Shown piece by piece: positions 7,160-7,765 of a DNA stretch of 12,559 nucleotides. Source of the DNA: a virus. The notes beneath the pieces are model-generated. The model worked only from the letters and a program-made list of their open reading frames with translations. It was not told the origin of the DNA and did not search any database. Within the stretch, counting starts at the first letter, position 1. The number at the start of each line of letters is the position of its first letter. The translations under genes and the position numbers were made by a program. The stretch lies in UHGV virus genome UHGV-1669866. One strand, 5' to 3'.

Positions 7160-7453
7160 TGTTGGCTCCGTTTATCCGTTAAAAGGGATATCAGTTAAGT
7201 TATCCCGTGTAGGGTATAAGCCATTGTCGAGACCACTCATTGAATGGTCTCTGCAATAACCGATGTCTTTCCATCAGTCCGCCACCACAAAGAATCTTTT
7301 TTGCCATAAGGCAGGAGGTTCATCTTTCAGTGGCTGCCAGTGTTATTTCCCCACTTACTGGCTTGGGTTGTTTCGCTGTACTGCCGTAACTGGTTTCCCA
7401 GAATAAATTCCGGTTTCATTATCAAGCCCACCCGTAGATGGGCTTTGTAATGA

Positions 7454-7729
7454 CTACAGTAACGGACTGCACAATGCGCCTGTATTTCGAGGATGACGTC
7501 CAAATACGTTAATCTTCTCGCGAACGCTCTCACTACACATTCGCTCTACAATTCGCCAAACAGCCTTTTCAGGTAAAAATTTTGGCGCTAGTGCTGAAAT
7601 AGCACGCCACAGACCTCGACTAAGCGAGCACGCTGTGCTACCGAAACTAAAGATGGCGAACGAAATAGACGTGATAAACGCCCAGCAACCAGAGAGAAAA
7701 GTTGAGATGCGGTGATAAAGCTTAGTCAT
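7454..7729 (-). CDS. hypothetical small membrane protein (91 aa) downstream of Rz
   Basis: ORF track 91 aa; strong AGGAG 7 nt upstream of the ATG at 7729. Hydrophobic segment FLSGCWAFITSISFAIFSFGSTA followed by a basic tail. Unrecognised. Confidence 0.4.
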   Translation of the reverse strand: MTKLYHRISTFLSGCWAFITSISFAIFSFGSTACSLSRGLWRAISALAPKFLPEKAVWRIVERMCSESVREKINVFGRHPRNTGALCSPLL

Positions 7730-7765
7730 GTATTGCTCCTGTTTTTTTTGGTTTTCATCGCCCGA

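Follow-up and report, generated by a model that had tools for sequence, protein, structure and literature searches.

Organization of the interval between the lysis and packaging genes

The window analyzed in this study is the whole 12,559-nucleotide stretch of the virus genome UHGV-1669866. It is a late-operon segment of a P22-type, P22/HK620-like podophage, and its closest relatives are vB_EcoP-611R6, vB_EcoP-683R2, and HK620, with ~98% identity. Every gene is encoded by the minus strand, in the direction in which late transcription proceeds. The subject of this report is the interval 7160-7765, which lies between the spanin gene Rz and a DUF2560 gene, the first gene on the packaging side. 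It contains a gene for a 91-amino-acid (aa) protein, named orf91 here, and a 294-bp gap without open reading frames (ORFs), in which a two-tier hairpin occurs twice. We consider it probable (about 0.7) that the interval is a hypervariable accessory region between the lysis cassette and the packaging genes, made up of an orf91 cassette, a noncoding linker, and a hairpin that is a shared element as well as a joint. The features of the interval are as follows.

7730-7765, minus strand: spacer of 36 nt between Rz and orf91 with the Shine-Dalgarno sequence ACAGGAG, kept in all lineages
7454-7729, minus strand: orf91, 91 aa, PHROG 34701, small basic protein with an N-terminal hydrophobic helix
7640-7708, minus strand: orf91 codons 8-30, hydrophobic putative membrane-anchor helix, fast-evolving
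7457-7564, minus strand: orf91 codons 56-91, nearly invariant C-terminal tail
7453-7160, minus strand: ORF-free gap, 294 bp
7417-7453, minus strand: hairpin U1, two-tier, (U)CAUUA-CA-[9 bp]-UACG-[9 bp]-GA-UAAUG
7262-7416, minus strand: noncoding spacer between the hairpins ("block A remainder")
7260-7261, minus strand: empty cassette slot, with GG in place of a leader and gene 66 (from the blastn map and junction sequences)
7222-7259, minus strand: hairpin U2 in its empty-slot form, UUAUUG-CA-[10 bp]-AAU-[10 bp]-GA-CAAUG
7160-7221, minus strand: DUF2560 leader with two small hairpins (7219-7200 and 7190-7173) and a GGAG Shine-Dalgarno sequence (7169-7166)

Coding potential of orf91

The coordinates given in an initial annotation of this DNA were correct. 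The 91-codon frame runs from 7729 to 7454, and the following gap (7453-7160), said to be about 290 bp without an ORF, contains only ORFs of at most 35 codons on either strand. The strong AGGAG ribosome-binding site claimed for the 91-aa ORF is located at 7740-7736, 6 nt upstream of the ATG.

A protein search retrieved relatives of orf91 in 53 protein clusters from E. coli, Enterobacter, and Citrobacter, with 55 to 99% identity and nearly all with a length of 90 to 91 aa. The 91-codon frame was intact in 64 of 66 IMG/VR loci, at up to 45% amino acid divergence. Variable sites were counted by codon position in 33 distinct full-length sequences (out of 35 distinct ORF sequences). The first, second, and third positions had 48, 36, and 52 variable sites, respectively, in codons 1 to 55 and 12, 5, and 28 variable sites in codons 56 to 91. 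By pairwise Nei-Gojobori estimates, the last 36 codons had a nonsynonymous distance (dN) of 0.01 to 0.06 and a synonymous distance (dS) of at least about 1, with a dN/dS ratio (omega) of 0.01 to 0.1; synonymous sites in these codons were at or near saturation in between-lineage comparisons. The omega of the N-terminal part was 0.2 to 0.5. The third positions are free to vary, indicating that the constraint acts on the peptide and not on an overlapping nucleotide element. The ACAGGAG Shine-Dalgarno sequence and its spacing were conserved in every lineage, including the distant locus L079. orf91 is a real protein-coding gene, and the initial annotation of the ORF as a genuine conserved gene is borne out by this clear coding signature. 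Lack of coding constraint in related phages had been named there as the observation that would speak against the gene; strong purifying selection was found instead.

The alternative, a frame that is open by chance in a noncoding spacer, draws on the absence of the 91-aa ORF from annotation. The gene is carried by 113 of 5426 complete E. coli genomes (~2%), the Prokaryotic Genome Annotation Pipeline (PGAP) of RefSeq omitted it in 24 of the 25 genomes listed from these carriers, and no Pfam or NCBIfam family covers it. A chance frame would, however, have had to stay open at 90 to 91 codons across the whole range of amino acid identity, to vary mostly at third positions with an omega down to 0.01, and to keep its Shine-Dalgarno sequence and spacing. 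The dN/dS analysis refutes this alternative, and practically no weight is left for it. The omission by PGAP looks like a systematic annotation gap for the family.

Damaged copies of orf91 were observed in the two remaining loci. In L040 (2501-2743), a stop codon after 80 codons removes the most conserved part of the tail, and in L072 (~2500-2775) the frame is shifted. Loss of orf91 occurs and is rare.

Family and predicted properties of the orf91 protein

The orf91 protein matched PHROG 34701, a family of unknown function, with an E value of 7e-57 over residues 1 to 91 of the 91-position profile, and residues 55 to 91 gave a partial match to phrog_24233. No match was found in Pfam, NCBIfam, or PADLOC or, by sequence-profile search, in the PDB, and neither Pfam nor PHROGs assigned the protein to a holin family. 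An exhaustive profile search of 1.84 billion representative proteins returned only 15 at E values of ≤0.001, all of 87 to 93 aa except for one 53-aa fragment. The invariant positions of the superfamily are M1, W58, E62, T83, G84, L86, and P89, and R63, N74, and G77 are nearly invariant. The columns of W58, E62, T83, G84, L86, and P89 hold in 36 sequences, distant representatives included, and these residues are directly mutable. The family is characterized by the motif W-x3-E-R...N-x2-G...T-G-x-L-x2-P near the C terminus and by a length of ~90 aa, and orf91 has both.

The single hydrophobic segment and the basic character described in the initial annotation were recovered. The segment covers residues ~8 to 30, and the net charge of the protein is +8. 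The 19-residue Kyte-Doolittle maximum of the segment is 1.69, which is borderline for a transmembrane helix. Distant members of the family reach 2.0 to 2.5, and several of them carry another hydrophobic segment just ahead of the conserved tail. This arrangement suggests an N-in/C-in topology, in which the tail would be cytoplasmic. The models from two AlphaFold2 runs (28 and 36 sequences) were of low confidence (predicted local distance difference test [pLDDT] scores of 62 and 67; predicted template modeling [pTM] score of 0.25), with a long helix at residues 2 to 51, a second helix to residue ~72, and coil at residues ~74 to 91. An invariant tail of predicted coil, carried by a generic membrane anchor, is what characterizes a short linear interaction motif, and we infer that the protein works through such a motif. 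A disulfide bond between C65 and C87 is not required, because distant members replace both cysteines. No relevant literature was found on the C-terminal peptide or on small proteins downstream of spanins.

Two lipoprotein assignments were rejected. The lipobox-like LSGC (residues 12 to 15) is part of the hydrophobic helix, and it lacks conservation: a variant with AEC exists, and the cysteine is absent in distant members. A Bor-like lipoprotein was rejected since Pfam gave no match to Bor and the gene has the orientation of the late operon.

Structure and distribution of the two-tier hairpin

The gap downstream of orf91 is free of ORFs, as initially annotated, but it is not featureless: it is a conserved block with two structured hairpins and an empty cassette slot. 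The hairpins have a common architecture of 37 to 41 nt, with an outer stem CAUUA/UAAUG, a 2x2 internal loop CA/GA, an inner stem of 9 to 10 bp, and a loop of 3 to 6 nt. The folding energy of U1 was -21.8 kcal/mol (z = -6.6), 4.6 kcal/mol better than that of the antisense strand, and that of U2 was -22.0 kcal/mol (z = -6.5), 6.7 kcal/mol better than antisense. The sense-strand RNA is more stable than its complement because of G.U pairs. Between the form of U2 in the window and the form found after gene 66 in other phages, three inner-stem pairs and one outer-stem pair were changed on both sides.

A covariance model of the hairpin, R1, was built; it scored U1 at 60.1 bits and U2 at 61.3 bits and found 39 copies, 27 of them distinct, in the loci collected for this analysis. 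In the alignment of the 27 distinct hairpins, 98.7% of the cells were paired, compared with 33 to 52% when the partners were slid against each other. Compensatory changes were detected in 7 of the 15 base pairs, and a U.G wobble was conserved in 25 of the 27 sequences. The hairpin is thus a structured element whose stems covary.

A U1-type hairpin starts 1 nt past the stop codon of every orf91 homolog examined, including the distant homolog P0055. In the complete genomes of HK97 and Sf6, the hairpin was present only between the Rz and terminase genes, twice in each, and a motif search did not find it in lambda or in the K-12 prophages DLP12 and Qin. A scan of IMG/VR for the conserved motif base, made independently of orf91, returned at least 120 stretches, where chance would yield only a few matches by our estimate, which was based on how much information the pattern contains. 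The 119 instances among the matches listed represent at least 60 distinct cores; all of them fold alike, and their inner stems are very diverse. The ORFs preceding the hairpins include at least 40 that are unrelated to each other, among them Rha-like proteins, Rz, o-spanins, small membrane proteins, and Ig-like tail proteins. An upstream ORF could be identified for 78 of the matches listed, and in 40 of these the stop codon was 0 to 1 nt from the hairpin. The hairpin has no Rfam family, is not annotated in the Sf6, HK97, and HK140 records inspected, and is not among the bsq features of Sf6. It appears to be a previously undescribed, widespread end-of-gene element of enterobacterial temperate phages.

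Candidate functions of the hairpin

An intrinsic terminator was rejected as the function of the hairpin. There is no U-tract, the tail GAUAAUG is followed by sequence that is not U rich in most lineages, and a terminator scan did not call the hairpin. A role in hiding the start of a real gene was also rejected. The hairpins following orf91 have a 3' arm that resembles a Shine-Dalgarno sequence, with energies like those of real genes in this region (-5.4 to -7.6 kcal/mol), and that precedes an invariant AUG by 7 to 8 nt. This property is not universal, as the 3' arms of the U2 type and several more lack the resemblance. The ORFs that begin at the AUG have a median length of 9 codons; ORFs of more than 60 codons follow in only 5 of 96 cases, each in frame with the next gene.

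What fits best is an intercistronic mRNA stem-loop that would be recognized by a factor and act in processing, in 3'-end stabilization, or in insulation. This reading is based on the placement of the hairpin between a stop codon and the next gene, on its sense-strand preference, and on the conserved internal loop and outer stem. No relevant literature was found on RNA processing in lambdoid late operons.

The hairpins are also recombination joints at which sequences are exchanged in register. In L010, an in-register junction (GATAATG/GCTTATACCC) connects the U1 hairpin past orf91 with the DUF2560 leader, and the sequence corresponding to 7416-7222 is cleanly missing. The gene 66 cassette has its right edge at the first base of a hairpin.

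The noncoding linker and the empty gene 66 slot

The linker block is 90 to 100% identical in 209 phage records, usually without annotation. Its carriers include the cos phages HK97, HK022, and mEp234 and the pac phages Sf6, P22, and Kapi1. According to the blastn map, window positions 7453-7262 correspond to the ~190 bp upstream of gene 66 in Sf6, 683R2, mEpX1, and phiKp_30, and positions 7260-7100 correspond to the sequence directly past gene 66 in the same phages. The GG at 7261/7260 replaces their 33-nt leader and gene 66, a segment of ~370 to 415 bp. Gene 66 of Sf6 belongs to the gp49/66 family (PF13876). Other loci have different inserts at or near 7261/7260, and P22 has a 630-bp insert further on. 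The initial annotation had named alignment of the interval to a known noncoding packaging region as a further observation that would speak against its reading; the interval does not align to a known packaging signal.

Two small ORFs in the linker were not retained as genes. The 30-aa ORF at 7419-7327, the longest on the sense strand, is shifted out of frame by 1-bp indels in HK97, Kapi1, and L016, and the 28-aa ORF at 7323-7237 is cut to 21 aa in loci with a filled slot. A decayed rha pseudogene was likewise rejected, as the rha gene of P22 merely abuts the block at 7387 and there is no homology upstream of this point. A plus-strand small RNA ending at the hairpins was rejected because there is no promoter for it and the antisense strand folds less well. 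With Rfam 15 at lenient thresholds, there was no hit with an E value of ≤1 in 6800-8300; the best score in 7205-7470 was 16.8 bits, against a gathering threshold of 42, and fell outside the hairpins. The epsilon34 paper does not comment on this interval.

Occupancy of the slot downstream of the spanin genes

orf91 is located 36 to 170 bp downstream of the spanin genes in all 66 loci, and this synteny is kept even where Rz has 64 to 70% nucleotide identity. In L049, orf91 follows a GH19 endolysin, a DUF2570-like i-spanin, and a LysC (P2-type) o-spanin gene; in L079, it follows two holin genes, an M15 endolysin gene, and a DUF2570 gene; and in L075, it occurs with a muramidase, Rz, and DUF4406. 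Its contexts thus span spanins of the lambda, DUF2570, and P2 (LysC) types and four types of endolysin. The distant homolog P0060 (L078, 4001-4615) has the only context without linkage to lysis genes. In L078, a podophage-like contig, P0060 and an 89-aa ORF on the opposite strand are located between the portal and terminase genes, and the large terminase gene carries a LAGLIDADG (intein-like) insertion.

HK140 and N7 are the only named phages with orf91. The same slot is occupied by gene 65 in Sf6, by Kapi1_042 (48 aa) and Kapi1_043 in Kapi1, by a KilA-N gene and gp61 in HK97, and by Rha in P22 and phiKp_30. In lambda, bor is found at this position in the opposite orientation, so that the comparison with lambda made in the initial annotation was appropriate: the interval is the accessory position that bor occupies there. 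Its suggestion of an accessory gene of unassigned role also stands, as relatives carry unrelated genes at the same site and the PHROG family is of unknown function. In Sf6, HK620, 683R2, and Kapi1, the S, R, Rz, and Rz1 genes are ~97 to 99% identical and orf91 is absent, indicating that orf91 is not needed for lysis. Judged by this distribution, orf91 is an exchangeable accessory gene and not a core lysis gene.

Kapi1_043 (L003, 1476-1997) is annotated as hypothetical and contains a Tad2-like Thoeris anti-defense domain (PF11195; E = 3.9e-26). Another Tad2-like gene (L075, 6011-6319) is found close to the distant homolog of orf91 in that locus. The Rz-to-terminase region looks like an anti-defense or accessory hotspot. 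The Tad2-like gene in the slot of sister phages makes orf91 a reasonable candidate for a role in phage-host or phage-phage interaction.

A simple scan of the minus strand at 6800-8300 found no sigma-70-like promoter, although weak promoters are possible, and no conserved -10 or -35 element was visible in the alignments upstream of orf91. The G+C content of orf91 (0.45 to 0.48) is not deviant from that of the neighboring sequence (0.44 to 0.54). Expression from the late transcript is the simplest reading of the position of the gene, its Shine-Dalgarno sequence, and the absence of promoter matches. In the lineage with P2-type spanins, the o-spanin gene is separated from orf91 by a G+C-rich hairpin (cggcctcgc...gcgagcgttt) followed by TTTCAAATT, at ~2440-2480 in L049 and at the equivalent position in L063. 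This hairpin resembles an intrinsic terminator; if it is one, orf91 in these loci needs antiterminated read-through or an undetected promoter.

Flanking genes and other observations

The genes flanking the interval on the lysis side and the first gene on the packaging side are as follows.

8983-8660, minus strand: lambda-type holin gene (lambda S-like, canonical dual start)
8676-8200, minus strand: lysozyme gene
7766-8203, minus strand: Rz i-spanin gene, the upstream boundary of the interval (Pfam Phage_lysis, E = 2.8e-36)
~7819-8001, minus strand: Rz1 o-spanin gene, an ORF embedded in Rz with the lipobox VVSAC
6917-7159, minus strand: DUF2560 gene, 80 aa, the first gene past the interval (Pfam PF10834, E = 2.6e-42; PHROG 571)

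The gene order past DUF2560 is terS, terL, portal, scaffold, and coat. The protein at the terS position (146 aa; window positions 6474-6914, minus strand; also L007, 2114-2554) gave only subthreshold Pfam matches, to helix-turn-helix and terminase-like families (E = 0.01 to 0.09). The corresponding gene in the 683R2 record, of equal length (441 nt), is labeled "HNH homing endonuclease" and looks misannotated. A scan for tRNA and transfer-messenger RNA genes found none.

The small stem-loops of the DUF2560 leader consist of the repeated words UAUCCC...GGGAUAA. The same leader architecture was observed ahead of different first genes in L015 (2814-2880), L044 (2803-2862), and L057 (2815-2870); the first gene behind such leaders is either DUF2560 or a gene of 68 to 72 aa starting with MSDIYQITL... 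The UAUCCC...GGGAUAA array could be an array of binding sites or could provide translational control of the first gene on the packaging side. In L041, L044, L049, L058, and L061, a conserved gene of 68 to 72 aa (MSDIYQITLTTQTGETF...) without a Pfam match replaces DUF2560 ahead of the terminase genes. It occurs in Enterobacter/Citrobacter-type prophages, ~60 to 450 nt past the orf91 hairpin, and is often followed by PhageMetallopep (PF18894).

Proposed function of the interval

In the explanation that we favor, the orf91 cassette comprises 7765-7417, that is, the spacer with the conserved Shine-Dalgarno sequence, the 91-codon gene, and the hairpin abutting its stop codon. orf91 would be translated from the Q-dependent late transcript, and its product would be a small basic protein anchored in or at the inner membrane by the freely evolving N-terminal helix. 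The invariant, largely unstructured C-terminal peptide of ~35 residues may bind a conserved partner at the cytoplasmic face, in a role of the phage-host or phage-phage interaction kind. The linker at 7453-7160 combines the two hairpin copies, the spacer between them, and the DUF2560 leader. Its slot at 7261/7260, which holds gene 66 or other cassettes in relatives, is vacant in this phage. Read in the sense of the late mRNA, the hairpin may be a 3'-end processing or stability element or an insulator, and because it is repeated, it also provides an in-register joint for the gain and loss of cassettes. The coding status of orf91 and its conservation pattern, the fold and covariation of the hairpin, the cassette insertions and deletions, and the in-register junction are direct observations.

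Several points weigh against this explanation. The hydrophobic segment is borderline as a transmembrane helix in the subfamily of orf91, and the AlphaFold2 models have low confidence values. Late expression is deduced from position, the conserved Shine-Dalgarno sequence, and a simple promoter scan with a negative outcome. Without a U-tract, the hairpin is no canonical terminator. The case for an RNA role consists of the strand asymmetry and the G.U pairs, and a hairpin of single-stranded DNA would tolerate G.T pairs too. Finally, hairpins do not mark every recombination junction in the region: P22 rha meets the block at 7387, and no hairpin is located at the left edge of the gene 66 cassette.

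A different role for the protein would be in tuning the timing of lysis at the inner membrane, as a dedicated component of the lysis cassette (for instance, an antiholin or a modulator of the holin or a regulator of the spanins). orf91 keeps its short distance from the spanin genes even when Rz is diverged or the spanins are of the DUF2570/LysC type, its gross features (small size, hydrophobic N terminus, and charged C terminus) are holin-like, and the two hydrophobic segments of distant members are like those of class II holins. The role in lysis timing or superinfection exclusion that the initial annotation put forward is hypothetical. The constant position is weak as proof of a lysis function, because the position is a general accessory slot. 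Phages with nearly identical S, R, Rz, and Rz1 genes carry unrelated genes in it, and lambda lyses without orf91. There is no match to a holin family in Pfam or PHROGs, the window already has a dual-start S holin, Rz and Rz1 separate orf91 from the endolysin gene, and P0060 adjoins no lysis gene. Moreover, such a component would need a partner that is common to four types of endolysin and several types of holin. We consider a lysis function unlikely. A still smaller chance, and a slender one, is given to orf91 as a regulatory nascent peptide of the SecM/MifM/VemP type, whose membrane segment would report insertion while the tail stalls the ribosome at the stop codon, remodels the hairpin, and controls downstream expression or the fate of the mRNA. 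The free hydrophobic N terminus, the variable linker, and the 34 to 36 nearly invariant C-terminal residues with their very low omega are in line with this, as are the length of the invariant tail (~35 residues, about that of the ribosomal exit tunnel), its predicted lack of structure, the hairpin 1 nt past the stop codon in every homolog examined, and the Shine-Dalgarno-like 3' arm ahead of the invariant AUG. However, the same hairpin follows at least 40 unrelated ORFs, many 3' arms are not Shine-Dalgarno-like, the ORFs opened by the AUG are short and rarely in frame with a real gene, no consistent and functionally linked gene is located downstream, and no known arrest motif is recognizable.

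For the hairpins, the alternative is that they are DNA-level recombination sites (attC- or REP-like, where REP is repetitive extragenic palindromic) that mobilize ORF-plus-hairpin cassettes and are not RNA elements. Their ends are conserved (CATTACA...GATAATG) and their palindromic centers are variable, they are placed 0 to 1 nt past the stop codons of many unrelated accessory ORFs, and they are confined to the accessory region in the whole genomes of HK97 and Sf6; the in-register U1-to-U2 junction in L010 and the right edge of the gene 66 cassette, exactly at a hairpin start, agree with this as well. But no dedicated recombinase was seen in the loci, the left edge of gene 66 and the P22 rha junction are not at hairpins, and homologous or microhomology recombination between repeats accounts for the junctions equally well. 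The conserved U.G wobble and the U.G-compatible single-site changes favor a sense RNA, with G.T pairing in single-stranded DNA as another possibility. We regard DNA-level sites as rather improbable. The same low standing is given to a wider proposal, in which ORF-plus-hairpin units form a cassette system: unrelated accessory ORFs, anti-defense genes included, would move between enterobacterial temperate phages by in-register insertion and excision, with the fold recognized as RNA or single-stranded DNA by a phage or host factor. orf91 would be one such unit, and its tail might communicate with the hairpin at translation termination. As for the 294-bp gap itself, it might encode a small RNA or microproteins (the 30-aa and 28-aa ORFs or ORFs of 47 to 49 aa on the plus strand). 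Conservation of the block is high, the z value for folding of the 301-nt region is -6.45, and the plus strand has a terminator-like site (7297-7318). It is the two hairpins that make the fold stable, though: the 157 nt between them had z values of -1.85 (sense) and -1.38 (antisense) and fold no better than shuffled sequence. There was no Rfam match near threshold and no promoter-like site in or facing the block, both sense-strand ORFs are disrupted or shortened in relatives, and 7416-7222 is dispensable in L010. A product encoded in the gap is therefore very improbable.

If the favored explanation is correct for the hairpin, it would provide a molecular handle on the shuffling of accessory genes among lambdoid phages, which is the old question of "linker sequences," and a practical marker for accessory cassettes in prophages. 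The element is supported by covariation and absent from Rfam; it marks many unrelated phage genes at their 3' ends, and mosaic joints coincide with it in register. The orf91 family is real, strongly constrained, and mostly left without annotation by RefSeq, and it occurs in prophages of Enterobacter and Citrobacter in addition to its share of E. coli genomes.

Comparison with known systems

The orf91 cassette resembles the lambda bor region and the morons of HK97. Morons, a concept reportedly due to Juhala and Hendrix, are accessory genes inserted between essential late genes. In both cases, the gene directly follows Rz/Rz1 and precedes the packaging genes, it is present or absent at one site among close relatives, a hairpin follows it, and the product is small and envelope associated (as predicted from sequence for orf91). 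The differences are that orf91 has the orientation of the late operon and no sequence relation to Bor. Of four features of morons, orf91 has the variable presence among relatives; the other three, an own promoter (by the simple scan), an own terminator, and a deviant composition, were not found.

In its overall layout, orf91 is similar to MifM, SecM, and VemP, which are monitoring substrates, that is, regulatory arrest peptides. In all of them, a membrane or secretion segment at the N terminus is followed by an invariant stretch of tunnel length at the C terminus, with an mRNA hairpin just downstream, and MifM is also a protein of ~90 aa. In contrast to these systems, the hairpin described here is not specific to orf91 and masks the start of no defined target gene. 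The likeness is one of sequence layout.

Intercistronic stem-loops, such as the RNase III sites of T7 and REP elements as in malE-malF, process or stabilize polycistronic messages. The hairpin is similar to these in its location within a long polycistronic transcript, past a stop codon and ahead of the next gene, in its two-tier helix with an internal loop, in the conservation of features over many copies, and in its sense-strand preference. It differs in that the lower stem has only 5 bp, in that it has no Rfam family, and in its restriction to the accessory region in HK97 and Sf6, as it is not found between all genes; this comparison, too, was made at the level of sequence.

Boundary or linker sequences at module junctions of lambdoid phages are known from the HK620 and Sf6 literature. 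Like the bsq sequences of Sf6, the hairpin is a short conserved sequence at mosaic junctions that allows exchange in register. The bsq sequences are plain stretches for which no hairpin was noted, whereas the hairpins described here are structured, have covarying stems, and abut stop codons. With the attC sites of integrons, they share an imperfect palindrome with conserved ends and a variable center that is located 3' of the cassette ORF and is associated with many unrelated ORFs. They are, however, much shorter (38 nt) and present in one or two copies per genome, no integron-like integrase was annotated in the loci inspected, and in contrast to integron cassettes, the left boundaries of the cassettes in this region do not coincide with a site.

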